IMG/VR virus record: IMGVR_UViG_3300033183_000212
Coordinates: 1-64,000 of that record
DNA length: 64,000 nt
Source: a virus
Reading direction: 5' to 3' (one strand)
This document shows positions 9,186 to 57,544 of this stretch, one piece after another. Position 1 is the first letter of the stretch, and each line of letters opens with the position of its first letter. The notes beneath the pieces were generated by a model. That model was not told the origin of the DNA, did not search any database, and was given only the letters and a program-made list of their open reading frames with translations. A program made the position numbers and the translations under genes.

Positions 9186-9193
9186 GTACTATA

Positions 9194-11112: not shown

Positions 11113-11115
11113 ATT

Positions 11116-25500: not shown

Positions 25501-26245
25501 CTTCTTTCTTTACTTCATGTTTAGGGATACGATCAGGGTGTGCTTCCCAAGCTAACTTGGCAGCGTTACCGATCATGCCTTCAAACGGACAGGGCGTACC
25601 AGCGTGCCACATTGCATCAAAGATTCTTCTGTCTTGACACATCGTCGCAACTGCTGCCACCTTCATACCCATGTCATACAATGTCTTAGCGTTCTTCAAT
25701 CTCTCACAGTTCAAGTCTCTTACAGTTGAACCACCAGAGATGCCAAGGATCTGAGTCTGAACTGCACCACTTACACCAGTCGTACACAAGTCATTACCAC
25801 CACCACTCATCATCGATGGTGCTACGGCTGTAGGAGGCGGAGACTTAACAGTTTGTTCTACCTTAGAGTCGTTGATGTTACGATTCGTCATGTCACCAGA
25901 GTTTACATTCTGATTGACATTAGTATTTGAATTCGTATTAGTACTTGTACTCGTACTTGTGTTTGTGTTGACATTCGTATTATTATTTGTATTAGTCGAC
26001 GTTGCTGTGCTTGTAGACGTCGATGTATTGGTATTATTATTTGTGTTTGTCGCAGACGAAGTACTGTTCACCGTCGTGTTGTTGGTGTTAGTATTCGTGT
26101 TTGTGTTGGTATTTGTATTGGTGCTTGTGACAGTGCTCGTAGATGTGGAACTGTTGTTCGTATCTACGAGTGTTGTGCTATCATAGGTTTGAGCACTTAC
26201 AGAAGCTGCAACACATAATATAGTCGCAGCGATGATTTTACGCAC
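25436..26245 (-). CDS. secreted Thr/Asn/Ser-repeat protein with a C-terminal TM anchor
   Basis: GTG start with a GGAGGA SD. Signal peptide RKIIAATILCVAASVSAQ, about 85 residues of TNTNTN/TSTSTS, a Cys-rich domain and the C-terminal anchor IGIGLGIAAVLGVVF. Confidence 0.6.
   Translation of the reverse strand: MRKIIAATILCVAASVSAQTYDSTTLVDTNNSSTSTSTVTSTNTNTNTNTNTNTNNTTVNSTSSATNTNNNTNTSTSTSTATSTNTNNNTNVNTNTSTSTSTNTNSNTNVNQNVNSGDMTNRNINDSKVEQTVKSPPPTAVAPSMMSGGGNDLCTTGVSGAVQTQILGISGGSTVRDLNCERLKNAKTLYDMGMKVAAVATMCQDRRIFDAMWHAGTPCPFEGMIGNAAKLAWEAHPDRIPKHEVKKEDDTFQKIGIGLGIAAVLGVVF
25903..26158 (-). repeat. imperfect (ACN-AAY)n coding micro-repeat encoding the TN/TS tract
   Basis: The plus strand reads gtatt(t/a)gt(a/g)tt(g/a)gt... 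repeatedly. It also creates the spurious VLVLV ORF at 25914-26186. Confidence 0.7.
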
Positions 26246-26539: not shown

Positions 26540-27403
26540 ATGAAATCAATCCTCGCAGTCCTTGCTGCTACAGTCACGATCACAGCACAGGCAGCAATCA
26601 CTGGCGCTGGTGCGTCATTCCCGGCTCCGGTCTACTTCAAGTGGGCTGAGGCATATAAACAAGCGACTGGTAAAGAAGTTAATTATCAGTCAATCGGTTC
26701 GTCCGGTGGTATCAAACAGATCGTTAAGAAGACGGTCGACTTTGGTGCTTCGGATGTTGCACGTAAACAAGCTGACCTCGATAAGGATGGTCAAGTACAA
26801 TTCCCCACAGTGATGGGTGGAGTTGTTGTCGTTGTCAATCTACCAGGCGTGGAGAAAAACCAGATCAATCTTACAACCGATCAAGTCGGTAAGTTGTTTG
26901 CAGGGAAGGTAAGCAACTGGAAAGATTTGGATTCTTCGTTGCCTGACCTACCTGTGACAGTTGCACACAGAGCTGATGGTTCTGGTACGACTGCAATCTT
27001 CACAACCTACCTTGCAGAGAACGCCAAAGACTTTCATCTGAAAGCTGGTAAGTCTGTTAAGTGGGAAGGTAACACTGTTGGTGGTAAGGGTAATGCCGGT
27101 GTTGCGGCTATGGTCTCTAAGATCAAAGGAGCAGTCGGCTATGTGGAATATGCTTTTGCTAAACAAAACAATCTTACGACAACTACTCTCAATGGAGTAG
27201 CACCAAGTGCCGATACGTTCAAGTCAGGTGACTGGGACATCACTGCACAGACATTCATTATTGTATACCCCGATGGTAAGAATACAAAAGAGGTTTACAA
27301 GTTCTTTGAATGGTGTTATAATAATGACCAGATTGCAGAAGGTCTAGATTATGTTCCTCTGTCAGAAAAGACAAAGAACGAGTCAAGAAAACTTTGGCAA
27401 TAA
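26540..27403 (+). CDS. pstS: phosphate ABC transporter substrate-binding protein PstS
   Basis: Signal peptide plus ITGAGASFPAPVYFKWAEAYKQATGKEVNYQSIGSSGGIKQI and GSGTT. AGGAGAA SD. Confidence 0.9.
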   Translation: MKSILAVLAATVTITAQAAITGAGASFPAPVYFKWAEAYKQATGKEVNYQSIGSSGGIKQIVKKTVDFGASDVARKQADLDKDGQVQFPTVMGGVVVVVNLPGVEKNQINLTTDQVGKLFAGKVSNWKDLDSSLPDLPVTVAHRADGSGTTAIFTTYLAENAKDFHLKAGKSVKWEGNTVGGKGNAGVAAMVSKIKGAVGYVEYAFAKQNNLTTTTLNGVAPSADTFKSGDWDITAQTFIIVYPDGKNTKEVYKFFEWCYNNDQIAEGLDYVPLSEKTKNESRKLWQ

Positions 27404-27479
27404 ATAAATTATGGATCTGACGAGCAGTAATGTGTCGTCTTCACCGGATGCCTAGAGCGAGCAAACCCAGCTATCGGAT

Positions 27480-27830
27480 CCTAAAACATGGCTCACCCCT
27501 CTGCCTAGTGTACGGGTGGGTTCTCTTATATTGCTGTATGAAGCAATGAGAAAGGTGTCTTGGACGGCGGTTCGATTCCGCCCACCTCCACCATAAGGGT
27601 ACTAAGATAAGCTTGGTACTCGATGCATAGGGAACGCCTCCTCTGGTATCCTTATGATGGGGGTGTACTGGTTTCGACAGGGCAATGAGTAACAGAGTGG
27701 ACAGCACGTCAGGCGATCGACGTTAATGAAGCGAAAACTATAAATGCCAATGATGAGGTATTTTTGATGGCAGCTTAGTGCTAGATGGGGATTCGCAGGT
27801 GTTCCTTATTACCCAAACACCTGCACTATC
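27480..27830 (+). ncRNA. ssrA: circularly permuted (two-piece) tmRNA gene. The acceptor piece ends at CCA 27591-27593, the coding piece starts at 27659, and the tag ORF is 27746-27778.
   Basis: ggacggcggttcgattccgcccacctccacca is a T-arm plus acceptor 3' strand plus ACCA. 65 nt downstream, gggggtgtactggtttcgacaggg is the tmRNA 5' consensus. 27659-27665 pairs with 27583-27589 and includes a G3:U wobble. Resume frame: GCC AAT GAT GAG GTA TTT TTG ATG GCA GCT TAG = ANDEVFLMAA*. The outer ends are approximate. Confidence 0.8.
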
Positions 27831-27832
27831 AT

Positions 27833-27840
27833 TATAAATA
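27833..27840 (+). promoter_or_regulatory. T4-type late promoter box TATAAATA
   Basis: Exact octamer 8 nt before the desaturase ATG. Confidence 0.35.
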
Positions 27841-27848
27841 GTTATATT

Positions 27849-28481
27849 ATGGAAACAATAATCATAGCAATTATATTAGGTCTTGTATGGAGCCAAGTGA
27901 TATCGCATTTTGGCGCTAGTATATTATTACACCGATATTATTGTCATAAACAATTTAAAGTGCCAAAATGGTTTGAATGGGTTGGTTTATCCATGTTAAT
28001 GATTGCATGTATAAGAACACCAATAGGATGGATTGCATCTCATCGAATGCATCATGCATATTCAGACGGCCCTAAAGATCCTCATTCTGTAAAATACGTA
28101 GGATTCTGGAAAGTTTTATTTACTATGTGGGATATTCCAAAAATACCTATTAAATTTGCAAAGGATTTGTACCAAAATAAGACACTGGTATTTTTCCATA
28201 ATAATTGGCTAAAAATATTGATCTTTGTTTGGATTATATCCTATCTAATCAGCCCATATTTTTTTATTTCGTTTGCTCTTACACCATTTATTTTTGCTAA
28301 AATAGGATTTGGTTTATTAAATACTGTTGGACATAAAAACGGTCCAAGTAATGTGCCGTGGTTGAATCTTTTTATTGCTGGGGAAGGCTATCATAAAAAT
28401 CACCATGATAATGGTAAAAGAATTAGATTACATAAATTTGATACCGGTGGGTGGATAGCTGAAAAGGTATTTAAACCATGA
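27849..28481 (+). CDS. membrane fatty-acid desaturase (delta-9/stearoyl-CoA desaturase family, short form)
   Basis: Three His boxes: HRYYCH, HRMHHAYSDGPKDPH and GEGYHKNHH. Multiple TM segments. Confidence 0.8.
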   Translation: METIIIAIILGLVWSQVISHFGASILLHRYYCHKQFKVPKWFEWVGLSMLMIACIRTPIGWIASHRMHHAYSDGPKDPHSVKYVGFWKVLFTMWDIPKIPIKFAKDLYQNKTLVFFHNNWLKILIFVWIISYLISPYFFISFALTPFIFAKIGFGLLNTVGHKNGPSNVPWLNLFIAGEGYHKNHHDNGKRIRLHKFDTGGWIAEKVFKP

Positions 28482-29101
28482 AAAAACATGAATTGCCTTT
28501 AGTTGCTGAATTTGATTTAAAAATTGATCTACTAAGACTTAAAGAAGCATCAGACAATATAGCTTACACATATACTAATGTAATTGATGCAAATCCGGGA
28601 TTATGTATGAATCATAAGGAACTCGTAAAAAATGTATATGATAATTTTGAACAAATTAATTTGACAACAGCATCTGAAATTTTATCATCAACAACTTCAA
28701 TCAAAGAAAGATTAAAACGTAAAGAAGAACATCTATTTAATGTTCCAACCAAAAATTATACTAATAGTATTTTTGAAGAAATAGTAACACAATTAAAAGC
28801 ACCTGCAAGTAGAGTTAGACTTACTAAATTAGCAGCTGGAAAGGAAATTCCTTTTCACGTTGATTATGATGTTAATTATGCTGTAAGATGTATTGTTCCA
28901 ATTTACACAAATACAAAAGTAATCAATCAATTTAAAATTGCTGATAAAATTGAAAGTTATAATTTAGAAGCTGGTAAAGCTTATTTTTTGAATATAGGTT
29001 ATCCACATAGAGTGCATAACAATTCAAATGAAGATAGAATTGCGTTAATGTTTAGTTTGGATGGAACAGATGATTTGGAATCATTTAGAAATAGCAGATG
29101 A
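28478..29101 (+). CDS. cupin-fold 2OG/Fe(II) hydroxylase (Asp/Asn beta-hydroxylase-like), paralog 1
   Basis: IPFHVDYDVNYAVRCIVPIYTN ... GYPHRVHNNSNEDRIALMFSL. Confidence 0.55.
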   Translation: MKKHELPLVAEFDLKIDLLRLKEASDNIAYTYTNVIDANPGLCMNHKELVKNVYDNFEQINLTTASEILSSTTSIKERLKRKEEHLFNVPTKNYTNSIFEEIVTQLKAPASRVRLTKLAAGKEIPFHVDYDVNYAVRCIVPIYTNTKVINQFKIADKIESYNLEAGKAYFLNIGYPHRVHNNSNEDRIALMFSLDGTDDLESFRNSR

Positions 29102-29858
29102 AGTTCAAAATAAAGGCTATAAAGTTTTTAATGATATAGAATTTTCTGAACAACAATATATTGATTTTATGAAAGGCTTTGGTGAGTTAGAAGCACCAGG
29201 CCTTTTTATGAATCCAAAAAAATATCCTCAGTTGTTTATTGTTACCGGAATGAAAGATAAAGAAGGTAACAAAATTGGCATGTTTGGAGATGGCGAATTA
29301 GGTTGGCATTCAAATGGTAATAGCCGACATTTAATTGATAAAATTTTAATCAGTTTATATTGTGTACAAGGTGATCCTAATACTACACTAAGTGTATGCA
29401 ATACCTCAGATCCATTTTACCATCTTTCCGAAGAAGAACAAGAATACTGGAAATCAATTACTATTCGTTTAAAATTTCAGAATGATACAATGTATCATTT
29501 GGATGAAGATGATCCTGAATTAGAATTCATGAGTAAAAATAAAGGTAGTATTCGTAAACTGGTTGATGTTCATCCCCATACCGGAAAGTATTATTTCTAT
29601 TTCCCTTATCATTTTATTGTTAAAGCATGGGAAGGTAAAAGGCAAATCAATCATGAAAAAATGATTGAAAAATTGAAACCAATTATATTTAGAAGCAAAT
29701 ATCAATATCATCATATTTTTATGAAAGGTGATATGCTTTTAATGGATCAGTTTACTACACTACATAGAAGAACACCAGTGATGGGTAACAGACTTTTATG
29801 GAGAATTGCAGGGGATTATCAAAACGTATGCAAGGCGAACAAATCAAACGAAAGTTAA
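29061..29858 (+). CDS. TauD/TfdA-family 2OG/Fe(II) dioxygenase-like protein with H-S-N in place of HxD
   Basis: LGWHSNGN, LVDVHPHTGKYYFYF and GDMLLMDQFTTLHRR align with TauD blocks WHxD, HP.tG and GD..iWDN...H. Confidence 0.55.
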   Translation: MEQMIWNHLEIADEVQNKGYKVFNDIEFSEQQYIDFMKGFGELEAPGLFMNPKKYPQLFIVTGMKDKEGNKIGMFGDGELGWHSNGNSRHLIDKILISLYCVQGDPNTTLSVCNTSDPFYHLSEEEQEYWKSITIRLKFQNDTMYHLDEDDPELEFMSKNKGSIRKLVDVHPHTGKYYFYFPYHFIVKAWEGKRQINHEKMIEKLKPIIFRSKYQYHHIFMKGDMLLMDQFTTLHRRTPVMGNRLLWRIAGDYQNVCKANKSNES

Positions 29859-30700
29859 AAGCGTATCCTTGGGTTGATATTCCATGTCATAAAGATGTTT
29901 TGTTTCTATTAAAAGAACAAGATTTATCTCAGACATATTATAAACGTGGAAGCGGTAAAGCAACTCGTGATTTAGATAAAGTTGAAAAAGCACATCGAGA
30001 ATGGGTTAATGATATTATAGACCTATCGGAGTTTCCTCATTGCTATTTTACTAATGGTATAACAGATGCAATTCATCTTTGGCGAATAATAGAAACCAGG
30101 CCTTGGCAAAAATTCGATGGCGATTATCAATATATAAATATAATAGGTTCTGAGAGTTCTATTTGTTATGACGCATCAGACATTGATTTAAATAAACCAT
30201 TATATGTCTCAATTCCATCTGCTATTGATGGTAATATATTTGATTTAGATGACATTAGTGCTCCAGTTATTCTAGATTGCACATATGTAGGATCTACACA
30301 AATTAAAAAAATTAAAGTACCAAAAAACACAGAACAAGTGTTCTTTAGTTTCTCAAAAGGGTTTGGACTGATAGGACAGAGACTAGGCTTAATATATACA
30401 AAAGAGCCACACCCAATCTTAGATAGATTAAAAAAATTCGAAAACTGGAATTATGCAGGAGTAAAGACTATTGAATTATTGATTAATAATTTTAAAGTCG
30501 ATACTATGTGGAATAGATATAGAAAAAGACAATTAAAGATTTGTAGTCAATATAATTTTGAACCATCTGATTGTTTCTTTCTAGCAACTACAAAAGATGC
30601 ATATTATGCAAAACGGAGAAGGATGAAATTCAGCGACGATGCTCGTATTTGTATAACACCTCTATTTGATGATTACTTAAGTACAGAGAATAGTAAATGA
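29828..30700 (+). CDS. PLP-dependent aminotransferase-like protein (short)
   Basis: FFSFSKGFGLIGQRLGLIY matches the SxSK..G..G.R.G PLP-lysine block. The start is uncertain (29798 or 29828). Confidence 0.45.
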   Translation: MQGEQIKRKLKAYPWVDIPCHKDVLFLLKEQDLSQTYYKRGSGKATRDLDKVEKAHREWVNDIIDLSEFPHCYFTNGITDAIHLWRIIETRPWQKFDGDYQYINIIGSESSICYDASDIDLNKPLYVSIPSAIDGNIFDLDDISAPVILDCTYVGSTQIKKIKVPKNTEQVFFSFSKGFGLIGQRLGLIYTKEPHPILDRLKKFENWNYAGVKTIELLINNFKVDTMWNRYRKRQLKICSQYNFEPSDCFFLATTKDAYYAKRRRMKFSDDARICITPLFDDYLSTENSK

Positions 30701-31302
30701 CTATACGAAGATTTAAATTACAATACGACATTAATAAATTTCGAGATGAAATAGATGCGCTATGGCCTTTAGAAAAATACGGGTTTCACGGTGAATTTCC
30801 TACTCCTAATGGAACATATTATCAAAATATAAGAGAAGGCGAAATGCCTTCACATTTAAGAAAAGCTATTGAAAATAGTATTGGTAAAGCAATAAAAGAT
30901 TATTATTTTTTATGGGACTGGAGATGCTTAACTAAAGTTTTGTTAAAACACAGAGATGGTTGGGAAGATGCAAAGGGCAATCCAGATGGGATTTCAGAAT
31001 TCGATAAACATGTATTTGAAGAAGATGCTGAAATAATAGGAGTTCCTCCTCTAACGGTTGTAGTAGCATTAGAAAACAATTTTAGAATTGATATTCAAGA
31101 TAGTAAAACCAGTGAATGGAGAAGCGTAACATATGGTCCTGGAGATATAATATTTTTTAATAATGCAAAAGATCTTCATGGTGGTGAAGTATTAAATGAT
31201 CCAGATAACATACCAAGGAGATCTCTTAATTGTTATGTTGGACATGACCAACTTGCTAATGATTTAACATTCTGGGATAACCCGGATTATGATAAACAAT
31301 AA
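30697..31302 (+). CDS. hypothetical protein (possible 2OG oxygenase fold)
   Basis: GDIIFFNNAKDLHGGEVL...RRSLNCYV is only suggestive. Confidence 0.45.
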   Translation: MTIRRFKLQYDINKFRDEIDALWPLEKYGFHGEFPTPNGTYYQNIREGEMPSHLRKAIENSIGKAIKDYYFLWDWRCLTKVLLKHRDGWEDAKGNPDGISEFDKHVFEEDAEIIGVPPLTVVVALENNFRIDIQDSKTSEWRSVTYGPGDIIFFNNAKDLHGGEVLNDPDNIPRRSLNCYVGHDQLANDLTFWDNPDYDKQ

Positions 31303-31930
31303 TATCCCTTGGCCAGATATCCATATTAATAATGGAATAGGTAGAGTACCACTCAAAGAAAATTATGCCTTTGAAGATATGTGGTATCTTGATACACCTC
31401 AAGCTTTACCTATTTTTGAAAAACAAGCTGATATTATTATCGAACATCAATCAAAGGGAATAGTTGATATTGGATGTAGGCATGGACCTATCCTTGATAT
31501 TTTATATAAAAGAGGATATACAAATTTCAAATATATGGGATTTGACACTTCTGAAGAACCTATCAGATTAGCTCAAGAAAAATGGACGAATTCTAATAAT
31601 ATAGAATTCCGTAATGAAAGTTGGGAAAATATGGAAACTTTCATTGTTGATTTTGATGTCGATCAAGTTATCTGGTCAGGAGTATTGTTATATAAGCCAG
31701 AAGATCATTTTAATTTTTTTAATAATATTACAAAAGATTTTTATAATGCACGTAATGCAATTATACAAGAACCTTGTAACGATCAAAAATATTGGGATGA
31801 AAGATTAATACTTAACACAATCTCTGAAGAATTTGAAATTTATAAAAAGGAATATAAATCATTTAAAGAGCATATAATCAATGCCGAAATATTTGCTGGA
31901 CGTAGAATGATAATTGATATTGAATTATGA
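31289..31930 (+). CDS. SAM-dependent methyltransferase
   Basis: Motif I IVDIGCRHGPILDIL. Confidence 0.65.
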   Translation: MINNNIPWPDIHINNGIGRVPLKENYAFEDMWYLDTPQALPIFEKQADIIIEHQSKGIVDIGCRHGPILDILYKRGYTNFKYMGFDTSEEPIRLAQEKWTNSNNIEFRNESWENMETFIVDFDVDQVIWSGVLLYKPEDHFNFFNNITKDFYNARNAIIQEPCNDQKYWDERLILNTISEEFEIYKKEYKSFKEHIINAEIFAGRRMIIDIEL

Positions 31931-32544
31931 AAATTTGCGGAATAGCTTTTAGTTACAGTAAAAACTCTATGGCTTTTCGTGGATTAAGTTTGATGAACAA
32001 TTATTTAAATTTTCAATGGTATTGCCAAGTAACAGATATTCCATTATGCAATAGTAATATTCCGGATGGTAATGTTCCTAAATCCGTAGAAAGATTATGG
32101 AATAATATGAATAAATGTGACGTATTTGTTTTCTCTATACCAGAAACAACCGGCCATTATTCAGCTGCATTTAAAAACGTAATGGATTGGTTTGTTGTTA
32201 AATCTCAATTTAATTCTGATCTTGGTCAGAAATATCCAATGTCAAATAAACCGGTTGTTGTAATAACATTTACGCCAGTTTATAAAAATGCTGGCGACAG
32301 ACATTTTAATATGACTAAACATATATTGCAAGAAAAGCTTGGCGCAGATGTCATAGATATGATAGTTAAAAACGATTGTTGGCAACATGTTATACCAAAT
32401 AACTTTGAATTTGTAGCTGAAGAATGTAAACAAATATTAAGTATACCCCTTGAAAATAAAATTATTGAAAAGCCAGACATGGCTAAAGAGGTAGATGATT
32501 GGCAAAAAAAATATAAGGAATGGAACAATAAATGGCAAAATTAG
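31927..32544 (+). CDS. flavodoxin-fold NAD(P)H-dependent FMN reductase-like protein
   Basis: MKICGIAFSYSKNS... and DVFVFSIPETTGHYSAAFKNVMDW resemble the PF03358 pattern (tPeYn.s....lKnaiDw). Confidence 0.55.
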   Translation: MKICGIAFSYSKNSMAFRGLSLMNNYLNFQWYCQVTDIPLCNSNIPDGNVPKSVERLWNNMNKCDVFVFSIPETTGHYSAAFKNVMDWFVVKSQFNSDLGQKYPMSNKPVVVITFTPVYKNAGDRHFNMTKHILQEKLGADVIDMIVKNDCWQHVIPNNFEFVAEECKQILSIPLENKIIEKPDMAKEVDDWQKKYKEWNNKWQN

Positions 32545-32966
32545 ATACTACTGGATTGTTAATTTATAAAGACAATGATTTTAAACCATTTGAAATTGAT
32601 GAAACCAAACGTTATGTAATGTGTGGAGTTCCTGGAGCATTTACGCCTGGATGTACAGAAAAACATCTTCCGGGATATGTACAAGCATTAAATCAATTTT
32701 ATGAAAAAGGTATAGATCATATTATTTTCATGGGGGTAAATGACCCATGCGTAATGGATGCATGGAATAAGTTTCATGGTCATAAAGACATCATTGCGGT
32801 TGCTGATGCTGAAGCTGAGTTTACAAAAAGAATGGGATTTGATCATGATTATGGTCCTGGAATGGGTATTCGTTGCCGCCGCTTTGCTATTTTAATTGAA
32901 AACGGTGAAATGAAAAAAGAGATGCATATTCCATTTGCTCAAGGTGCGTTAGGGGAAATTTATTGA
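32532..32966 (+). CDS. peroxiredoxin (Prx5/atypical 2-Cys type)
   Basis: VPGAFTPGCTEKHLPGY active-site block. Confidence 0.8.
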   Translation: MAKLDTTGLLIYKDNDFKPFEIDETKRYVMCGVPGAFTPGCTEKHLPGYVQALNQFYEKGIDHIIFMGVNDPCVMDAWNKFHGHKDIIAVADAEAEFTKRMGFDHDYGPGMGIRCRRFAILIENGEMKKEMHIPFAQGALGEIY

Positions 32967-33607
32967 TTGATGCCGTTGCCGAATATTTAGATATTGATTT
33001 AGAGATTGAAAAATATCATTTAATATTTGATCAAGTAAATCAAGGCTATAATACATTTGGTAAAACCGAATGGCATAGCTATTCATTAGAAGATAATATC
33101 ACTGGAAAGGATTTACCGTTCTTAGAACTGTTTGAACCAATCCTTATTGAAATGCGCAATGTGCATCCTCATATACAAAAAAGATCTACTGGTTTTAATT
33201 ATGCAAATTCTTTAGAAAAAGATTTGTTTATTCATACCGATGTAGATTATGATACAAAACACCCAAAACATTTTAATATGGTTATTCCCATATTTGGTAA
33301 AGCTATAATAAATTATTATGAAACCCGTGAAGAAGAGATTTGGTTACCAGAAAAAAATGCACATGGCTATGCATATTATCATGAATTTTATTTGCGTAAT
33401 AAATCTGGCTATGAAGAATTTAAAAAGAAAAGAAAGATTGGTGAAATTATAGTAGAAGATAAGCCGGTTTTAATTGATACTAATCTAATGCATGGTGTTG
33501 AAATCCTTAAATCTCCTCGTTGTGCTTGGGTCACACGCTGGAATAATATTCCAGTTCACCATGATTTTTATACATGGAAATCTAGAGTAGAAAGAATATT
33601 AAAATGA
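32963..33607 (+). CDS. cupin-fold hydroxylase-like protein, paralog 2
   Basis: LFIHTDVDYDTKHPKHFNMVIPIFG and LMHGVEIL resemble 28478-29101. TTG start overlaps the upstream stop. Confidence 0.45.
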   Translation: MIDAVAEYLDIDLEIEKYHLIFDQVNQGYNTFGKTEWHSYSLEDNITGKDLPFLELFEPILIEMRNVHPHIQKRSTGFNYANSLEKDLFIHTDVDYDTKHPKHFNMVIPIFGKAIINYYETREEEIWLPEKNAHGYAYYHEFYLRNKSGYEEFKKKRKIGEIIVEDKPVLIDTNLMHGVEILKSPRCAWVTRWNNIPVHHDFYTWKSRVERILK

Positions 33608-34158
33608 TGCGAGTTGTTCCGTATATAGAAAATGGAAAAAGACTGTATGTAAATGATGATTTATGTATGGATGCTTTTTTAAAAATGGAAATAGAAAGCC
33701 AAAAAGATAGACTATACAAAAATTATACTTTTAATAATTTAAAATTAAATGAAATGTATAATTTTAATTTTGTATTTGATAATGACAATCCTGTGTTAGC
33801 ATCAGGATGCCAAGTATTTAATGAGAATGTAATTAGAGTTTTTAGTAGATATTATGTATTTGATGAATATAGAACCGATGGTAAAAAATTATTAGATAAA
33901 TCAGATGACTTTATGGAATTAAAATATAGTCTTAATCTTATTAAAAAATTTCCATTAATAATATGGGCTAGAGATAAATCATCTGGTTTTTTTAAAAGAC
34001 TTAAAGCCGAAAGATCTGATATATTCAAAAATTGGCAAATACACCATGAAAAAATAGAATTAAAATATAAAAACAATTTTCATAATATATTTTATATTGG
34101 TGACATTAGTCATTTACACAACCTACAATATGAAGTCTATAGTCAAAAGAAGCGTTAA
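33604..34158 (+). CDS. hypothetical protein
   Basis: ATGA-coupled ORF. AT-rich. No motif. Confidence 0.45.
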   Translation: MMRVVPYIENGKRLYVNDDLCMDAFLKMEIESQKDRLYKNYTFNNLKLNEMYNFNFVFDNDNPVLASGCQVFNENVIRVFSRYYVFDEYRTDGKKLLDKSDDFMELKYSLNLIKKFPLIIWARDKSSGFFKRLKAERSDIFKNWQIHHEKIELKYKNNFHNIFYIGDISHLHNLQYEVYSQKKR

Positions 34159-36973: not shown

Positions 36974-36995
36974 TTAGTCTTATTATGTACGGGCA

Positions 36996-37024
36996 GGGGC
37001 GGGCAATCCGCCCCTTTTTTATTT
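36996..37024 (+). terminator. strong rho-independent terminator
   Basis: ggggcgg-gcaat-ccgcccc followed by ttttttatttt. Confidence 0.8.
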
Positions 37025-37032
37025 TAAAAACA

Positions 37033-37040
37033 TATAAATA
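37033..37040 (+). promoter_or_regulatory. T4-type late promoter box TATAAATA
   Basis: Exact octamer just after the terminator at 36996 and before the gene at 37054. Confidence 0.45.
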
Positions 37041-37053: not shown

Positions 37054-38430
37054 ATGCCTTTCTTATTGGAGAACTATATGCCTGTTTCAATGTTCGGCTC
37101 AATGAGTCGCGCTGAATGGTTTAAATATGGTCCTAAAAGATTAGACACTCTTATTGATGTTATTAAAAGCGGTAATCCAGTGCCTAGTGTTTCAGGATTA
37201 AGTTTAGAAATTTTAGTCGACAAAAATAACATCAAAAGTGTCGAAGAGTTTAAATCTAGTGATGATAAGACTAAGACTTTTACTCTTAAATTAAAGAATG
37301 GCAATACGATTGAATCTAATATTATCGGAAAGTCTCCAATATTTGGAGGTAAAGGAGCTGGAGCTGGAGCGACGGGTGATACTTCAAAAGGTGAATCATT
37401 ACAATGTTTATATTTAGAAGCTATGTTAAACGAGGGAGTTACAAAACCATTTATGCATTTTACTCCTAAATTACTAGAAAAATATTCTAAGGAAATTGAT
37501 ACTGATGTTTCATTTAAAGATATGATGTCATCTGAAGCACCTTGGCACTTTTCTGCTTATGTTACAGCAGCGCATTTAATCTCTAACAAATTTGTAAATA
37601 AAAATCAAAAATTTCATAGAGGTTCTACAATTATGAAAGCCATATACAAAGCTAAAAAGGTAGCATTAGCAAATGAAGGATTGCCTGATTTGACAGATGA
37701 CAAATGGAATCCGGGTGACATATGGGCTGTTAAAAATGGTTTAGATCTGTCTAAAGCATTAAACACTACTTCAATAAAAAACTTAAATGCATCTTTAAAG
37801 AAAAAATTTCAGAGTAGAGAAATTGTCGGTATATCTCTTAAACAGGTAGATAGTTTAAAGAAATCAGCAAAGCATGAAATCTTGAATCTAGATGCAGTAG
37901 AACCTGATAAACATACTTTTACATCTGTAAAAATTCGTGGTACATCTTTTTGGTCAAATAAAAATGGTATGCTAATATATGATGGAACTAAAAAAGCAGA
38001 TATTAGAGCTCCTAGTTCTATGGGAGCTATGAATATTGAGGTTCAAGGTAAAGGAGCAAGAGGCGGAAGAGCTGGTTATAGTATTGTTGAATATGCAGCA
38101 AAAACTTTTTTGAAAAAGAATCTTCCTTCTAATGCCCAATTAAAAACAGAAGCAACTGAGATCCATAAAAAGAAAAATAAAAGATCTATTGATAATCTTC
38201 GAATGATGGCTCAGAGTGTTGACTCTACTATAACTAAACAAGAATTTGATAATGGATTAAAAGAAGCTGCTTTAGATAAAGTTCATGCAAAACTCGGCGT
38301 AACTTATATCGCATACGCTCTAACAAAAAGCACAAAAGCTCAAAGAAACGATTTCATTTCATATATGATAAATTATGCAGGATCTAAATTAGAAACTTCA
38401 TCGGTTTATGTTAAAGTGAGTGCTAAGTAA
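37054..38430 (+). CDS. hypothetical AT-rich 458-aa protein (possible PD-(D/E)XK nuclease)
   Basis: TATAAATA box at 37033. NPGDIWAV ... VGISLKQV could be a D...(S/E)xK nuclease core. Weak. Alternative start at 37078. Confidence 0.55.
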   Translation: MPFLLENYMPVSMFGSMSRAEWFKYGPKRLDTLIDVIKSGNPVPSVSGLSLEILVDKNNIKSVEEFKSSDDKTKTFTLKLKNGNTIESNIIGKSPIFGGKGAGAGATGDTSKGESLQCLYLEAMLNEGVTKPFMHFTPKLLEKYSKEIDTDVSFKDMMSSEAPWHFSAYVTAAHLISNKFVNKNQKFHRGSTIMKAIYKAKKVALANEGLPDLTDDKWNPGDIWAVKNGLDLSKALNTTSIKNLNASLKKKFQSREIVGISLKQVDSLKKSAKHEILNLDAVEPDKHTFTSVKIRGTSFWSNKNGMLIYDGTKKADIRAPSSMGAMNIEVQGKGARGGRAGYSIVEYAAKTFLKKNLPSNAQLKTEATEIHKKKNKRSIDNLRMMAQSVDSTITKQEFDNGLKEAALDKVHAKLGVTYIAYALTKSTKAQRNDFISYMINYAGSKLETSSVYVKVSAK

Positions 38431-38582: not shown

Positions 38583-39818
38583 ATGAATACATTTCAGCAG
38601 TTCGTAACAGAACAAAAGAATACTCATATGACGCACCTTTAGCTTGAGGACAAGGTCCTCTATGGTGGTGTGAATGGTACGCGTCAGGCAATCCTCGCAT
38701 TGCGTTCACTCAGAGACATGTTGGCAGGAGTCCACGATGGAAAAGTTTCTGTTAAGTGGGATGGTGCTCCTGCTATTTTTGCTGGCATCGATCCTCGTGA
38801 TGGTAAGTTTTTTGTGGCAAAAAAAGGAATTTTTAACAAGTCACCAAAGGTTTATAAATCAGACGCTGATATTGACGCTGATACTAGCGGTGATCTCGCT
38901 GATAAACTCAAGTCTGCTCTTAAGCATCTCCCCGCACTAGGCATCAAGGGTGTAGTGCAAGGTGACTTCTTGTTCTCTAAAGCAGATATAAGAAATGAAA
39001 AGATCAAAGGACAGCAGTATGTTACTTTTCATCCCAATACTATTGTTTATGCTGTGCCTGCGAATACACAGATGGCCAAGGACATCAAGTCAGCACAGAT
39101 AGGTATTGTCTGGCACACCACATACACTGGTAACTCGTTTGAAACAATGAAAGCATCTTATGGCGTTGATGTGACTAAGTTTAACAAATCTACGAAGGTC
39201 TGGTCTCAGGACGCCATGCTGAAAGACATGACTCGTTACACAATGTCTAAACAGGACACTGACGAAGTCAATGAACACTTATCAAACGCAGGGAAGATAT
39301 TCAACCAGATTGCATCTAGTACGCTCCGTGAGCTGGAAGCTAATCAAGTTCTTGCCGGGACTATTGAAACATTCAATAATACTTTTGTACGAAGAGGGGA
39401 AGTTGTCATTGACACGAACAAGCATGTCAATAATCTCATTCGTTACATCGCTAATAAGTATAAGGTGCAGATAGACAAGGCAAAGAGCGAGAGAGGCAAG
39501 GCTTCTCAAACTGCAAAGATGCAAGAGACGTTGAAATTCTTTTCGGCTACAAACAAAAAGAATCTCAAATTAATGTTCGATTTGCAAAAATCTTTGATTC
39601 TTGCTAAATTAAAAATTATAAATATATTACAGCGACTGTCAAGCACGGCTACTTTTCTTAAAACTAAGAATGGTTTTAAAGTAACGGGCCAGGAAGGATA
39701 TGTTGCGATAGACACACTTGGTGGTGATGCAGTGAAAATTGTGGACCGTATGGAGTTCTCATACGCAAACTTTTCACCCGATATATTAAAAGGATGGGAT
39801 AAACCAACGAGGAACTGA
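38583..39818 (+). CDS. CTS-tagged ligase-like nucleotidyltransferase (KxDG), interrupted by an in-frame TAG at 38640-38642
   Basis: Strong AAGGAGG SD before the ATG at 38583. MNTFQQFVTEQKNTHMTHL*LEDKVLYGGVNGTRQA... is in the same frame as the track ORF (GTG 38670, no SD). VSVKWDGAPAIF is nucleotidyltransferase motif I. Confidence 0.55.
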
Positions 39819-40258
39819 TGTTAGACTTTAAAGACTTTATTGTCGCCGATTATCGTCCAGGCGAACCAGACATACTTAAGTACAGAGCTCAGCGTCGCCG
39901 TCGTTTAGGCGAAGAGGTTGAGCAGACTGATGAAGCATTGACCACAACGCAACGACTTGCTCGTAAGCGTCAGATGCAAAGAACCAAAGCCAAGATCAAG
40001 TTAGGCAGAGAGCGTGCCAAGCGTCGCTTTGCCTCGAAAGAGAAGCTGGAGAAGAGAGCAATTCGTCAAGCACGCATGATGATCTTCAAGAAGCTGACAA
40101 AAGACATTCCGAAAGACGAGCTGACATACGCTCGTAGAGCAGAGATTGAGAAGCGCTTGGAGAAACCAGCGCTCAAACAAAGGATTAAGATGATTGCTCG
40201 TAAGAATCTACCCAAGGTCCGTAAACAAGAGATCGAGAGAAAGAGAAGACAAAGCTAA
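39818..40258 (+). CDS. highly basic Arg/Lys-rich protein with a CTS-like N-terminus
   Basis: MLDFKDFIVAD..., then RRRR, KRQMQRTKAKIKLGRERAKRR. Confidence 0.6.
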   Translation: MLDFKDFIVADYRPGEPDILKYRAQRRRRLGEEVEQTDEALTTTQRLARKRQMQRTKAKIKLGRERAKRRFASKEKLEKRAIRQARMMIFKKLTKDIPKDELTYARRAEIEKRLEKPALKQRIKMIARKNLPKVRKQEIERKRRQS

Positions 40259-41439
40259 TGATTAGCTCTTTTAAATCGTACCTTGTCGAGGAAGAGAAAA
40301 CTGTTTATTTTACCTTCGGTAGAATGAACCCTCCTACTATTGGTCATGAGAAACTTCTTAATTCCCTCGCCACTAAGTCTGGCAATAATCCTTACCGTGT
40401 TTTTCTTTCGCAGTCTCAAGACAAAGCTAAGAATCCTATTGGGTATAAAGACAAAGTAAAGTTTGCACGTAAGATGTTTCCTCGTCATGCTCGCTCGATT
40501 ATGATGAATCCTAAGATCAAGACGTTCCTTGACGCTGCAGTTTCTCTGTATAACGAAGGCTTTAAGAATGTGGTCATGGTCGTAGGCGAAGATCGCGTCA
40601 ATGAGTTTGATATCTTGTTGAGCAAGTATAACGGTAAAAAGATGCGGCACGGTTTCTTTAACTTTGCTCGCATTAACGTCGTATCTGCTGGCCAGCGTGA
40701 TCCTGATGCAGAGGGAACAGAAGGCGCATCTGCTACAAAGCAGCGTCAACACGCAAAAGCAAAAGATTTCACTGGCTTCAGTCAAGGCTTGCCTAAGGGT
40801 GTAAGCAACGCTGATGCCAAAGCTCTGTTCAATGCCGTAAGAGTTGGCATGGGTCTGAAAGAAACCACAGACTTCACAACTCACGTCAAACTAGACACAG
40901 TGTCTGAGACGAGAGAGCAGTACGTTCAGGGAGATTTGTTTCAGGTTGGCGATCGAGTAGTTGTCATTGCGGACGACACGATCGCCACCGTTTCTCATCT
41001 GGGTTCTAACTACGTCATCATCGAGCAAGAAGGCTTGAAATTGCGTAAATGGTTACAGGATGTTGAGCTGTTAGAAAAAACCAGATCTCCTCAGGATCCT
41101 GATATCGGCGATCGTAAAGGTACACAGCCTAAAGCCTATCACTCTGGTTTGTCAAAGGCTACTAAGATCAAGAGAGACGCTCAGTTTAAAAAGCAGTCGA
41201 AGATGGATGATAATAATCCAAGGGCATATAAGCCTGCTCCTGGTGATAAGACAGCTAAGACAAAACCGAGTAAATATACGCTGAAGTTCAAGCAGATGTA
41301 TGGTGAACAGATGTCAGCCACTGATATCGCTAAGAAAAGAATTGATCAAGAAAAGAAAGCCGATGCCAAACGTCATGATAGAATGATGGATAGAGCACGG
41401 ACTAAGGATACTCAATCAATCAATAAGGCTACGAAATGA
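40258..41439 (+). CDS. CTS-tagged HxGH nucleotidyltransferase-fold protein with a Lys-rich C-terminal tail
   Basis: MISSFKSYLVEEE..., FTFGRMNPPTIGHEKLL (HIGH motif, compare NMNAT/cytidylyltransferase), and a disordered K-rich tail. Confidence 0.65.
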   Translation: MISSFKSYLVEEEKTVYFTFGRMNPPTIGHEKLLNSLATKSGNNPYRVFLSQSQDKAKNPIGYKDKVKFARKMFPRHARSIMMNPKIKTFLDAAVSLYNEGFKNVVMVVGEDRVNEFDILLSKYNGKKMRHGFFNFARINVVSAGQRDPDAEGTEGASATKQRQHAKAKDFTGFSQGLPKGVSNADAKALFNAVRVGMGLKETTDFTTHVKLDTVSETREQYVQGDLFQVGDRVVVIADDTIATVSHLGSNYVIIEQEGLKLRKWLQDVELLEKTRSPQDPDIGDRKGTQPKAYHSGLSKATKIKRDAQFKKQSKMDDNNPRAYKPAPGDKTAKTKPSKYTLKFKQMYGEQMSATDIAKKRIDQEKKADAKRHDRMMDRARTKDTQSINKATK

Positions 41440-41663
41440 TTACTTTCAAAGCGTATCTTAAAGAAGCTGAGTCTTGGGAAGCCGGTTACAAGCGCAGAGT
41501 TGTAAAGACTACCAGTGCTGATCATAAAGAAAAAGGTTACAACTGGAGAATCAAAGGTAAGGAACGCCCCGAGATCTCTATTAAGTTGTATAAGAGTAAG
41601 CCTTCTCAATCCGAGTTTAATAAGCAGATGAGAAGAGTTGCAGGACATGAGTTTGGTGGATAA
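41436..41663 (+). CDS. small basic CTS-tagged protein
   Basis: MITFKAYLKEAE...; ATGA overlap. Confidence 0.55.
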   Translation: MITFKAYLKEAESWEAGYKRRVVKTTSADHKEKGYNWRIKGKERPEISIKLYKSKPSQSEFNKQMRRVAGHEFGG

Positions 41664-41664
41664 C

Positions 41665-41904
41665 ATGATAACATTTAAGACATTCATCAGTGAAAGCGGT
41701 ACCACAACGGCTTTGAAAAACAAAGCTGCTAAATCTGGTATTTCACTTGGTATTCTTCGCAAAGTTTACAACCGTGGTGTTGCCGCATGGCGCACCGGCC
41801 ACAGACCTGGAACTACACCTGCACAATGGGGTATGGCTAGAGTCAACTCATATATTACAAAAGGCAAGACCTATCATACGGCAGATAAGGACCTAAGGAG
41901 TTAA
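41665..41904 (+). CDS. small CTS-tagged protein
   Basis: MITFKTFISESG...GVAAWRTGHRPGTTPAQWGMARVNSYI. ATG 1 nt after the upstream stop. Confidence 0.6.
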   Translation: MITFKTFISESGTTTALKNKAAKSGISLGILRKVYNRGVAAWRTGHRPGTTPAQWGMARVNSYITKGKTYHTADKDLRS

Positions 41905-41906
41905 AA

Positions 41907-42875
41907 ATGTCACTCAAAGTATCACATGGAATCGGTGCATGGATTAAGGACTTCCAGAAATCAGATGCTCCCCAATTCAAAGGTAAATCAGATAAAGAGC
42001 GTAGAGATCAGGCCATTGCTGCTTATCTCTCTGCCAAGCGGGCCCAAAAAGAAGGTAAAGAAGAAACACCACCTTTTGATGGTCCGTATAAAAAAGTAAA
42101 GTCTGTTGTTCCTGGCAAACATGGTGAAGGTCCTTCTACCGCTAAGCATCTTGCTAAGCAAGGTATGAAACAGGCTGAGAAGAAGCCAGTAAAAGAAGGT
42201 CTTAAACCAGGTTGGATGCTCAAGAAAGATCCTGAGCTGGCAAAGAAATTAAAAGCTAAAATTGATCTTGCCAAGAAGCGCCAAGCCACCTATGGTGATA
42301 AGAGCGCTGGTAAATCCGTAGGTGAGGCTACTACTTTTGAAGTTGACATTGAAGGTTTGCCAAAGATGTACATCAAGGACAAGTCTCCTGGTGCCGTCAA
42401 AGCTAAGTTGCGTGGCATCGTCAAGCAACCTTCTATGATTCAAGGTGTTGATCGCGTGACCGATGCTGAGATGAAAAAGACATATCGTGATAAGGCACAA
42501 GGCCGTGATGAGGTTGATGAGGCTGTCAAACCTCGTCCAACAGATAGTGCTTTATACAAGACACTTGGTCCAACCAGGCATTATAATCAAGGTGTTGAGG
42601 CTTTGAAGAAGGCTCATGGTTTTACTGCTGCTCAAGCCAAAGGTCATATCAATCGTTTAATGACTCAGATCGCTAAGGCTGATAAGACACAAAAAGAATC
42701 TGTCAAAGAAGTATCTGGCGCAATGGCTCAACGCTATCACGACAAAGCCGCAAAGACACCTCTACCTGCTAATAAGAAGACTCCTGAGAAAGCACTCAAG
42801 AGATTTGCAGGTATGATGAAGGCTCAGGATAGAATCCATCGTGATGAGTTGAAGCGTATTGGAGGCCAGAAATGA
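41907..42875 (+). CDS. Lys-rich hypothetical protein
   Basis: AGGAG SD. 322 aa, basic, low complexity. Confidence 0.55.
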   Translation: MSLKVSHGIGAWIKDFQKSDAPQFKGKSDKERRDQAIAAYLSAKRAQKEGKEETPPFDGPYKKVKSVVPGKHGEGPSTAKHLAKQGMKQAEKKPVKEGLKPGWMLKKDPELAKKLKAKIDLAKKRQATYGDKSAGKSVGEATTFEVDIEGLPKMYIKDKSPGAVKAKLRGIVKQPSMIQGVDRVTDAEMKKTYRDKAQGRDEVDEAVKPRPTDSALYKTLGPTRHYNQGVEALKKAHGFTAAQAKGHINRLMTQIAKADKTQKESVKEVSGAMAQRYHDKAAKTPLPANKKTPEKALKRFAGMMKAQDRIHRDELKRIGGQK

Positions 42876-43204
42876 GAAACATCTGGCAAAAATATGTTAA
42901 TGAAGTAATGGACAAAGACTACGGTACTACCAAAGGTACCAAGTTGGCTAAATCCATGACACCCGGTCAGAATGAAGCTAAGGATGAAGATCCTGGTGAA
43001 TATGATCAAGAAGGCGATATGGCCAAGACGCAGCTACGTACTATCGCTGACGCAGCCAAAGAGCTACATGACATGCTGAGCGATGATCAGAACATGCCAG
43101 AATGGTGTCAAAACAAAATTACAAAGGCACAGGATTATATTGATTCTGTCCGCGACTATCTTAAAGCAGAAAACGACGAGGATGACGAAGATGGAAAAGA
43201 TTGA
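42872..43204 (+). CDS. acidic protein with a CTS-like N-terminus
   Basis: MRNIWQKYVNEV...; C-terminal NDEDDEDGKD. Confidence 0.5.
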   Translation: MRNIWQKYVNEVMDKDYGTTKGTKLAKSMTPGQNEAKDEDPGEYDQEGDMAKTQLRTIADAAKELHDMLSDDQNMPEWCQNKITKAQDYIDSVRDYLKAENDEDDEDGKD

Positions 43205-43553
43205 AAAGTTCAACAAGTTCCGTAGCGACATGATCGACGACATCTGCGAATGCACTAAGATGTATGAAGAGCTTGAGATTGAAGAGGCGACTTATCAAGG
43301 TAAGTCGGTAAAGCTTAACGATCCGGTAAGGTCTTCAGATGGAAAAAAGAAGTTCCATGTTTATGTCCGAAATGATAAGGGCAATATTGTCAAGGTTGGA
43401 TTCGGTGATCCCAACATGGAAATTAAACGTGATGATCCTGCTCGTCGGGCTTCATTTAGGGCTCGCCATAATTGCGATAATCCTGGCCCCAAGTGGAAAG
43501 CAAGATACTGGAGCTGCTATCAGTGGCGCGCCGGTGCAAAGGTCGACAACTGA
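43191..43553 (+). CDS. conserved phage hypothetical protein
   Basis: KKKFHVYVRNDKGNIVKVGFGDPNMEIKRDDPARRASFRARHNC is a block I recall from phage and giant-virus ORFs of unknown function. Confidence 0.5.
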   Translation: MEKIEKFNKFRSDMIDDICECTKMYEELEIEEATYQGKSVKLNDPVRSSDGKKKFHVYVRNDKGNIVKVGFGDPNMEIKRDDPARRASFRARHNCDNPGPKWKARYWSCYQWRAGAKVDN

Positions 43554-56530: not shown

Positions 56531-57544
56531 AATTTTTGATTTCATGGCCACGGCCTGAAGGTGAAGATCTGATTCAATACTTTGAAGGAGCTCAGAAGAA
56601 AAGCTCTGAGATAGCAAAGCGACCGTATCTTCATGATAAAGACCTGTACGCAGTTCCTTCTTTCTATCACACATTAGAAAAAGTGTTAGATGATATGGGT
56701 GTACCTCATGATAGGTTATATAGAAAGAGGTATAAGAGGATAGCCGCTCCAAACAAAGACGCAGTGGTGTTGTGTTATCACGCTCATTCAGACATCATAG
56801 AAAACAATGTGTGGTACGTACACACCTCTTCATTGGCTGGATACTTCACGGTTGATCGTAGAGGTTTTGCTGGATTCAGTGAACCAGCACATAACAAAAG
56901 CTTCTTTGAAGAAAGCAAAGGAGTAGACTTAGATCAAGCTAGAGAGTTCTTTGATAAGTTCTCTAAAGATTTTATTGAGTCCAGCTCAAGCAGAAACTTT
57001 CAACCTAAAGAAGATCTATCAATTGATGAACCCTATATCTTTATTGCTGGCCAACTTAGCTATGACTCTGTAGTCACTCAGCTCTGTCACATTAGACCTC
57101 CTCAAGAATACTATAACGAGATCGCAAAGGTTGCAAAGTGCAAGGTTGTGTATAAGAAACATCCAGCCGACGGCTTAAACAATAAGAAGAACGATCTAAA
57201 AAAACCAAATTATCCTAACGTTATAGAATATAATGGCTCTATACATAAAAGCTATTCAAGGAGCGCTTGGCGTATTTGTAATTAACTCCGGTGTGGGGTT
57301 TGAGGCTCTGCTACATAAGAAGAGAGTGTTTACGGCCGGTGAGTGTGACTATAAGTATATTACAGAGATCATAAATGACAACAGCCAAGTAGCTGCAAAG
57401 ATGAAGACTCTAGGTAAACCTATTGATGAAGAGTCGATCATTAAATATATGTACTACTTGATAAATGAAGTTTATGTTGATACGAGCTCTTATGACTCAA
57501 TTCGTAAAAAAGTGGAACGCATTATTAGAATGAATGGTAAATGA
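56527..57544 (+). pseudogene. capsule-polysaccharide-synthesis (KpsS/KpsC, Capsule_synth-like) gene split by a 1-nt frameshift at the A4 run 57247-57250
   Basis: ORF 56527-57285 (IFIAGQLSYDSVV, YKKHPAD) and ORF 57233-57544 (VFVINSGVGFEALLHKKRVF) read as one protein if one A is removed (...NGSIHK/AIQGALGVFVINSG...). Confidence 0.5.

Follow-up and report, generated by a model that had tools for sequence, protein, structure and literature searches.

We analysed a 64,000-nt stretch of viral DNA (positions 1 to 64,000 of the IMG/VR record IMGVR_UViG_3300033183_000212, called the window below) in which neighbouring genes at about 37–43.5 kb encode proteins sharing a short N-terminal leader. By analogy with phage T4, this locus probably represents a T4-type capsid-targeting system in a different, Kyanoviridae-like phage family, with enzymes among its cargo. 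In the literature searched, such a system in Kyanoviridae-like phages is apparently undescribed. A first-pass annotation of the window had proposed head-packaged cargo marked by a T4-type capsid-targeting sequence (CTS). The match of the leader to that of T4, its conservation as a peptide, its portability, the protease and capsid site of relatives and the leader proteins found in virions of phages S-CREM2 and S-SCSM1 all argue for this proposal, but several of its details failed: gene 38583 (genes are named here by their first position) contains a stop codon, a ligase could not be recognized, and the statement on the T4 internal protein IPI was too strong.

A clustered N-terminal motif

The six N-termini quoted in the first-pass annotation, those of genes 38583, 39818, 40258, 41436, 41665 and 42872, were all recovered at their positions and read as quoted. 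A strict core motif, [STD][FY][KQ]x[FY][ILVM]x[ED], matched only four times in the six-frame translation of the whole 64 kb, and all four matches were gene starts (38583, 40258, 41436 and 41665), each 2–4 residues after the Met. With a looser core, [FYW]xx[FYW][ILVM]x[ED], we obtained 26 matches in 127,996 six-frame positions. Five of them were the N-termini of 38583, 40258, 41436, 41665 and 42872, all within 4.3 kb, against about 0.07 N-terminal matches expected (computed for about 100 genes). The enrichment at this locus, suggested earlier as a check, was thus observed, and the N-terminal motif is real and far above chance.

At the two positions corresponding to the T4 targeting residues, the aromatic pairs were F/F in 38583, 39818 and 41665, F/Y in 40258 and 41436, and W/Y in 42872. 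Five leaders end with an aliphatic residue, any residue and Glu (V-T-E, L-V-E, L-K-E, I-S-E and V-N-E, in gene order), which agrees with the earlier count of (I/L/V)-x-E at residues 8–11 in all but one of the six; the exception, 39818, reads I-V-A-D. The set of six leader genes is accordingly made up of five canonical or near-canonical N-termini, but 39818 is a shifted Asp variant. Gene 41907, described as lacking the motif, does lack it.

Likeness to the T4 sequence and conservation as a peptide

The CTS of the T4 internal proteins (IPs) IPI, IPII and IPIII was reportedly described by Mullaney and Black in 1996. The sequence used in our comparison was MKTYQEFIAE. All three IPs had been said in the first-pass annotation to begin with it; a review describes the IPI propeptide as similar to, not identical with, those of IPII and IPIII, so the claim has to be softened for IPI (PMC9026906). 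In T4 amber-suppressor genetics, targeting depended on residues 4 and 7 and processing on residues 8 and 10, and a leader with Asp at position 10 was blocked in cleavage but kept targeting (PMC9026906). The window leaders keep precisely aromatic-4, aromatic-7, aliphatic-8 and Glu-10, while the other positions vary. As for the mature cluster proteins, none gave a Pfam or PHROG match named internal protein, no direct comparison with T4 IP sequences having been made.

We then examined the leader in homologues of the two largest leader-associated products. In DUF6267, the domain encoded at 38583, the form F-x-[ED]-[FY]-I-x-E was present in 108 of the 119 closest homologues; for the nucleotidyltransferase encoded by 40258, F-x-x-[FY]-L-[VI]-E was present in 105 of 119. 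Across related loci the leader core occurred in 169 distinct DNA versions, with TTT or TTC, TAT or TAC, GAA or GAG and at least six Ile/Leu codons. Such free synonymous variation argues for selection on the peptide, and it rules out the leader as an RNA or DNA element.

Portability of the leader in relatives

A scan of 84 related loci (832 kb) gave 199 Met-prefixed motif matches, of which 197 lay on the cluster strand, almost all of them at starts of open reading frames (ORFs). Once their first 14 residues were removed, the leader proteins fell into about 21 clusters without detectable mutual similarity. The nearest complete genome is that of Phage C48C1 (Kyanoviridae; 64.6% protein identity on the DUF6267 gene), and six of its seven N-terminal matches were found in one 11-kb block.

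The S-PM2 and P-HM2 orthologues have no leader, their first residues already belonging to the conserved domain (MATQNKHLEHLED... and MKKVYVTFGRLNPP...), which indicates that the leader is an add-on ahead of the domain. The cytidyltransferase gene of C48C1 (L001, about 7622–9031; about 63448 in OQ984149) starts with MNPPTIGH... in GenBank, and an upstream GTG gives (M)IKNFSQYLLEEE. This GenBank start lies probably too far downstream, the GTG start restoring the leader common to all relatives. DUF5824 is in other phages fused to the C-terminus of the nucleotidyltransferase, with a junction (ISRKDYLKQ) that carries no canonical leader; in the window it forms a separate 79-aa gene with a full leader of its own. 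This is what one would expect if each separately translated polypeptide needs a label. Polyprotein-like internal leader sites at fusion junctions were also considered and rejected, the sole recurrent internal match (around residue 262) lying inside a folded beta-barrel.

The position directly upstream of DUF6267 (loci L004–L084) is a hypervariable slot, in which many of about 20 unrelated leader families occur. Each of them comes with the leader and usually with TATAAATA, a T4-type late-promoter core, 30–45 nt upstream. The slot recalls the modular shuffling at the T-even internal-protein locus.

Leader proteins in published virion proteomes

For S-CREM2 (OR473000), 52 of 219 proteins are reported as detected in CsCl-purified virions. 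A genome-wide scan found the leader at five annotated coding-sequence starts (gp6, gp13, gp14, gp154 and gp175), and four of the five proteins are among those detected: the SAM hydrolase gp6 (MKDFDSFLEE), gp13 (MKDLHSFLTE), the kinase gp14 ((V)KRFDAFLTE) and the cytidylyltransferase gp154 (MKNFSSFLTE). Another virion-detected protein, the Cas9-like nuclease gp12, carries LRFASFMAE at residues 17–25. The motif was absent from all 12 non-virion S-CREM2 neighbours examined. For the overlap between leader and virion detection the hypergeometric P was 0.012, or 0.003 counting gp12. The genes for gp6, gp12, gp13 and gp14 lie at 3837–13331 of S-CREM2 (L089).

In S-SCSM1 (MK867354), where the leader scan covered 140 of 229 kb, the virion-detected NMNAT ORF91 starts with MKSFLQFLKE, and most genes of the syntenic block (ORFs 89–93, 95 and 97) are annotated as virion proteins. 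The 40258 product is 39% identical to ORF91 and 34% identical to S-CREM2 gp154, both of them leader-bearing and detected in virions. In the cyanophage proteome papers, NMNAT-like or cytidylyltransferase proteins are repeatedly reported from purified virions; according to Sullivan et al., the cytidylyltransferase family T4-GC190 is a cyanophage core gene whose product was found in S-SM1 virions. The S-SCSM1 and S-CREM2 papers remark on the 'frequent detection' of such enzymes and leave the choice between cargo and contaminants open. No link of these proteins to a capsid-targeting sequence was found in the literature searched, which left most subscription journals outside.

Protease and cleavage site

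The genomes of C48C1 and S-CREM2 follow the T4 gene order portal-protease-scaffold-capsid, the protease being of the gp21 type and the capsid gene that of the major capsid protein. A metagenome scan with the C48C1 protease retrieved 80 contigs other than the source contig of the window. The segment GSFLTE/AEIGG of T4 gp23 (here and below a slash marks the cut), which we take to be the T4 maturation cleavage site, has at the same place GGFLTE/TG in the C48C1 capsid protein and GLLTE/AP in that of S-CREM2. When the major capsid proteins of 58 clade loci were compared, the commonest variants at the maturation position were G-F-[LM]-x-E or G-x-L-x-E. This likeness suggests that the leader has, in its C-terminal half, a site of the kind that the clade protease would be expected to cut. 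The products of 41436, 41665 and 42872 each contain a single [ILV]xE site, located at the leader end.

The nucleotidyltransferase of gene 40258

Gene 40258 (40258–41439, + strand) encodes a HIGH-motif nucleotidyltransferase with the leader MISSFKSYLVE (PHROG cytidyltransferase, E 1e-74), and its homologues carry PF01467. A Foldseek search with the model of the product retrieved NadD, NMNAT and PPAT at E 3e-4 to 1e-3, with probability 1.0 and target TM 0.52–0.68. Identity to solved enzymes was only 9–18%. As modelled, the product has a Rossmann-like fold of the NadD/NMNAT/PPAT type; C-terminal to this domain lie a small beta-barrel and then a helical tail rich in Lys, and residues 1–11, the leader, are disordered. 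The earlier description of an HxGH protein with a nucleotidyltransferase fold and a Lys-rich tail is in agreement with both the Foldseek result and the model. In 67 sequences, G21, R22, N24, P25, P26, T27, G29 and H30 as well as S158, K161 and R163 were invariant; the corresponding motifs are G-R-x-N-P-P-T-x-G-H and S-x-x-K-x-R.

DUF6267 and its in-frame stop

The DUF6267 gene opens at 38583–38642 (+) with the leader MNTFQQFVTE and 9 further codons, and its reading frame is then closed by a TAG at 38640–38642. The DUF6267 body with its invariant K-x-D-G (38643–39818, +; Pfam PF19782, E 1.7e-99) continues in the leader's frame and is cut off by this TAG. The gene of about 411 codons announced at 38583 is therefore not an intact ORF, since codon 20 is a stop. 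The surrounding sequence reads MNTFQQFVTEQKNTHMTHL-stop-LEDK (HL-stop-LED) and has 6 extra nt compared with relatives, which read THIED. The DUF6267 genes of relatives have no stop at the leader-body boundary, and the nearest homologues listed are intact and mostly 408 aa long. A 50-nt probe matched only a related IMG/VR contig, which is stop-free. P0001, a database protein from a 146,617-bp JGI metagenome contig, agrees with the window product at 100% identity but has only 382 aa; the TAG is thus probably also present in the source assembly, 382 aa fitting a gene call from GTG 38670.

Reassignment or suppression of the stop codon was considered and rejected. In 29 sampled window genes the stop was TAA 15 times, TGA 13 times and TAG once, long ORFs are intact in the standard code, and a search for a suppressor tRNA found no tRNA in the window. 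TAG is hence rare rather than recoded, and this one is a lesion, a minority or population variant, or an assembly error.

We further analyzed the proposal that the KxDG protein has a ligase-like fold. K38, D40 and G41 (the motif I lysine and K-x-D-G) are invariant in 71 DUF6267 sequences, and a later E-G-x-V...K-x-V-D-R block is also found in the alignment. Nevertheless, a Pfam search with 71 members gave no ligase family at E up to 10, sequence and profile searches of the PDB found no ligase or capping match, and hhalign against T4 Rnl2 and T4 DNA ligase (gp30) gave probabilities below 1%. The AlphaFold model (pLDDT 85) had no significant ligase match by Foldseek in PDB or BFVD and no PDB match at E<0.001; DNA ligase IV (E 0.3–1.3) and an archaeal RNA ligase (E 0.7) recurred weakly, the fold search being dominated by a 130-residue helical insertion. 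The ligase-like fold is thus unconfirmed by sequence, profile or structure, and of the two nucleotidyltransferase-fold enzymes first described, the 40258 product stands with its NadD/NMNAT/PPAT-like fold, whereas DUF6267 gave no significant ligase match.

Many cyanophages encode DUF6267 fused with the PF01467 nucleotidyltransferase in a leaderless protein of about 590 aa (e.g. S-PM2; L094, 5992–7767). This gene fusion argues for a joint function and suggests that the two window enzymes may act together.

A perfect antisense sigma-70 consensus, TTGACA-16-TATAAT, was observed inside the DUF6267 gene (39615–39642, −). It is the sole one in the window, where 0.04 are expected, and overlaps a TATAAATA on the + strand. 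As a promoter it was discarded, relatives not having kept it.

Proposed model and alternative explanations

According to the model that we favour, most operon products begin with a propeptide, M + 1–3 residues + F-x-x-(F/Y)-(I/L/V)-x-E, equivalent to the T4 CTS. By analogy with T4, the two aromatic residues of the leader would bind the protein to the scaffolding core during prohead assembly, and after assembly of the shell a gp21-type prohead protease would cut after the Glu of (I/L/V)-x-E. The mature protein would then stay in the head with the DNA and enter the cell at infection. Its putative cargo comprises the NadD/NMNAT-like HIGH-motif nucleotidyltransferase, the partner DUF6267 (stop-interrupted here) and several small, mostly very basic proteins. 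For the window phage, we infer packaging, cleavage and injection, as well as a role of the cargo after entry, from this analogy.

A number of observations weigh against such a model. In this assembly the TAG severs the DUF6267 body from its leader. The Asp of 39818 comes one residue late, 42872 has a Trp and a looser spacing, 41907 is leaderless, and the two genes that flank the series have degenerate leaders. The head genes lie outside the 64-kb window, so that the gp21-type protease is deduced from relatives. Classical cyanophages (S-PM2, P-HM2) have leaderless orthologues, and the leaderless T4-GC190 family is reported from S-SM1 virions; the leader is therefore not the sole route into particles or virion preparations. 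Conversely, two proteins with canonical leaders were not detected in virions: S-CREM2 gp175 (55 aa) and S-SCSM1 ORF30 (MKTFKQFMSE). The loose motif is also found at the N-terminus of an S-SCSM1 2OG oxygenase, and the seventh N-terminal match of C48C1 is the UvsW helicase, a non-virion protein, for which chance is the probable explanation. The proteome papers themselves warn that abundant non-structural proteins may co-purify with virions, and the proteomic evidence comes from related phages outside the immediate clade of the window phage. The leader rule is thus good but imperfect. ORF30 of S-SCSM1 (L180, 44215–44535) lies between structural genes and is a candidate cargo gene.

The alternative that survives best, although we hold it to be improbable, accepts that the leader sends proteins into the prohead core but takes the small basic ones for scaffold or DNA-condensing components (similar to T4 gp67/gp68 or to the IPs in their bulk role) that are degraded or passive and do not act as injected effectors. 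The products of 39818, 41436, 41665 and 41907 are indeed small and very basic (isoelectric point (pI) 10–11.1, 18–33% K+R) without an enzymatic domain, and the core proteins of T4, likewise cleaved at (L/I)xE, are for the most part expelled (PMC9026906). However, the two largest members of the putative cargo, both conserved across the family, are enzymes or resemble them, and an orthologous enzyme is found in mature virions. Also, the lone [ILV]xE at the leader end in the 41436, 41665 and 42872 products fits cargo that is cut once and kept.

It is far less probable that the shared N-terminus is the boundary of a recombination or duplication cassette, or a translation-initiation optimum, with no targeting involved. 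The invariant positions are exactly the four important in T4, the leader correlates with virion detection, and conservation at the amino-acid level with free synonymous variation speaks against a DNA recombination site or RNA element, even if the slot before DUF6267 is filled by many unrelated families with a common promoter and leader. Just as slight is the probability that another system reads the leader, which might then anchor proteins to the membrane or the assembly site, direct them to a different virion compartment or act as a degron that times their removal: the motif is a short amphipathic peptide and some virion-detected proteins of the S-SCSM1 syntenic block have only partial motifs, but a Sec or TAT signal would have to be longer and less polar, the capsid proteins of the clade have a maturation site equal to the C-terminal half of the motif, and no tail or baseplate protein of C48C1 or S-CREM2 carries it.

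If capsid targeting by the leader is retained, a broader reading can be offered, tentatively and with more doubt than confidence. The leader would be a portable address label, readable from sequence, by which the set of injected proteins is defined in a large clade of abundant marine and freshwater T4-like phages; the conserved unit of DUF6267 and the NMNAT-like enzyme would be injected, perhaps rebuilding or modifying an NAD+-type cofactor or a nucleic-acid end before phage gene expression, and the first slot would be a hypervariable cassette of injected counter-defence proteins. Were this true, the counter-defence candidates in relatives would be the SAM hydrolase, kinase and nuclease of S-CREM2. 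The anti-restriction role first suggested for the cluster is unsupported, both enzymes being conserved core genes of the phage family and not hypervariable arms-race genes; functions of the counter-restriction type could be held by the variable first slot of the operon.

Comparison with known systems

Like the T4 IPs, several adjacent window genes share a leader some 10 residues long, in which positions 4 and 7 are aromatic and aliphatic-x-Glu occupies 8–10, and the mature parts of the putative cargo are mostly basic and mutually unrelated. The window genome is likewise of the T4 type, with putative late promoters, and a gp21-type protease is encoded by its relatives. Differently from the T4 IPs, the phage is Kyanoviridae-like and not of the Straboviridae, large conserved enzymes are part of the putative cargo, the first aromatic stands at a variable distance from the Met (2–4 residues, longer in some families), and the function of the window leader is a prediction from sequence. 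T4 Alt, a packaged and injected ADP-ribosyltransferase, offers a second parallel as a head-carried enzyme with N-terminal processing at (I/L)xE (the Alt site is MELITE/L), but its propeptide is not an IP-type CTS and the window enzymes (HIGH-motif nucleotidyltransferase and DUF6267) belong to unrelated families.

The closest counterparts are the virion-associated NMNAT-like enzymes or cytidylyltransferases of cyanophages (S-SM1 T4-GC190, S-SCSM1 ORF91, S-CREM2 gp154 and that of S-CBWM1). The 40258 product is their orthologue, with 34–43% identity, and its gene lies in the same syntenic block after gp43-uvsX-gp41. Unlike 40258, some cyanophage orthologues (P-HM2, S-PM2) are leaderless. The proteome papers offer no packaging mechanism, and no mention of the leader was found in the sections consulted or in the literature searched. 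A further comparison is with the ejection proteins of giant phages (SPN3US, phiKZ-like), which are described as numerous head-internal proteins, some of them enzymes, processed by a protease related to T4 gp21. Their cleavage motif and phage lineage differ from those of the window leaders. We know of no short portable N-terminal label of the window form shared by these giant-phage proteins.

The T4-like cyanophages, together with relatives that infect SAR11, OM43 and other hosts, belong to the most abundant marine viruses. In several virion proteomes, purified particles yielded enzymes of the NMNAT-like, kinase, SAM hydrolase and nuclease types, and the question of cargo or contaminant was left unanswered by those studies. 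A T4-type leader would supply a mechanism together with a simple sequence rule that predicts injected proteins, so that ideas on what is delivered during the first seconds of infection would become a list open to testing. The leader could also serve to load foreign proteins into capsids other than those of coliphages, as has been done with T4.

Operon organization and other genes

A terminator-like hairpin with a T-run ends the upstream unit (36995–37025, +; 9 pairs, 7 of them G-C, then TTTTTATTTT) and is the best site of this kind within 36–46.5 kb. It is followed by TATAAATA at 37033–37040 (+), 14 nt before the ATG at 37054, which is the probable operon promoter. The arrangement of terminator and then TATAAATA fits T4-type late transcription as judged from the motifs. 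Of 181 leader genes in relatives, 34 (19%) have TATAAATA in the 100 nt upstream, compared with 53 of 1091 other genes (5%); it nearly always stands 30–45 nt before the first leader gene of a cluster. The window genes abut or overlap by 1–4 nt up to at least 43.5 kb, and those from about 37.05 to 43.55 kb are probably one tightly packed, late-transcribed operon.

The first gene of this operon (37054–38430, +) encodes a 458-aa protein of phrog_1462 (E 1.4e-36) with the degenerate leader MPFLLEN, which keeps F-L-L-E and loses the first aromatic; relatives start with MLRFKAFLLEK...MSRAEWFKYG. A stop codon two codons upstream of the start makes a longer leader impossible. The product has 26.5% identity over 245 aa to the virion-detected S-SCSM1 ORF90 (E 6e-9). 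Downstream of DUF6267, gene 39818 (39818–40258, +) encodes a very basic 146-aa protein (pI 11.1, 33% K+R) with the variant leader MLDFKDFIVAD. In relatives the N-terminus of this family reads F-K-D-hydrophobic-hydrophobic-x-V-(D/E)-Y-R-P-G-E, and the C48C1 orthologue has the canonical MLSFKQFVSE.

The nucleotidyltransferase gene is followed by 41436 (41436–41663, +), encoding a basic 75-aa protein with the leader MITFKAYLKE, whose only [ILV]xE is at residue 10; no homologue was found among the related loci examined. Gene 41665 (41665–41904, +) encodes 79 aa that correspond to the C-terminal half of DUF5824 (Pfam PF19141, E 2.6e-20), with the leader MITFKTFISE. The leaderless gene 41907 (41907–42875, +), embedded in the operon by overlapping start and stop codons, encodes a Lys-rich basic protein of 322 aa (pI 10.0) without Pfam or PHROG family match. 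Gene 42872 (42872–43204, +) encodes an acidic 110-aa protein (pI 4.4), a singleton among related loci, with the weaker leader MRNIWQKYVNE. The characterization of the cluster products as very basic and Arg/Lys-rich accordingly applies to most of the small ones (pI 10–11.1) but not to this acidic protein. The last gene (43191–43553, +; start uncertain, 43182 or 43191) encodes about 120 aa of phrog_7595 (E 3e-13) with the degenerate leader MEKIEKFNKFRSD; its homologues carry canonical leaders, MKKFKQYIDE in C48C1 and MKFKSYMEEE in L067. By this family comparison, the flanking genes 37054 and about 43191 belong to the leader module, their families carrying the leader in relatives.

Phage and genomic context

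The window encodes a T4-type replication module: a gp43-like DNA polymerase, UvsX, a DnaB/gp41-like helicase and a class I ribonucleotide reductase. No near-identical phage DNA was found for it in GenBank, whereas the database proteins with 100% identity to window products come from the 146,617-bp JGI metagenome contig. After C48C1, the next-nearest relatives were Stenotrophomonas phage DLP6, the Methylophilales Melnitz phages, pelagiphage HTVC008M and several hundred cyanomyovirus records, and we regard the phage as a T4-like, Kyanoviridae-like myovirus from a metagenome.

A glucosyl-hydroxymethylcytosine pathway had been read from the same window. A ThyA-family enzyme, ThyX, an alpha-glucosyltransferase-like gene, UDP-glucose dehydrogenase and nucleotide-sugar epimerases are indeed present (10285–16166, 19628–20314 and 57541–58683), but hydroxymethylcytosine itself is not shown by them. 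Sugar hypermodification of the phage DNA is plausible from this gene content.

A transfer-messenger RNA (tmRNA) gene was found at 27468–27849 (+), with 133 bits for Rfam beta_tmRNA (threshold 84) and 142 bits for tmRNA_permuted (threshold 47); ARAGORN predicts the tag peptide ANDEVFLMAA. The betaproteobacterial tmRNA type hints at the host lineage, in agreement with the Methylophilales phage Melnitz among the relatives. A low-GC island at 28000–34000 (GC 0.30 vs about 0.43 elsewhere), with about ten co-oriented ORFs of 200–300 aa, looks like horizontally acquired DNA. Finally, three ORFs adjoining the tmRNA gene (24067–25500, −; 25436–26245, −; 26540–27403, +) have signal-peptide-like N-termini.

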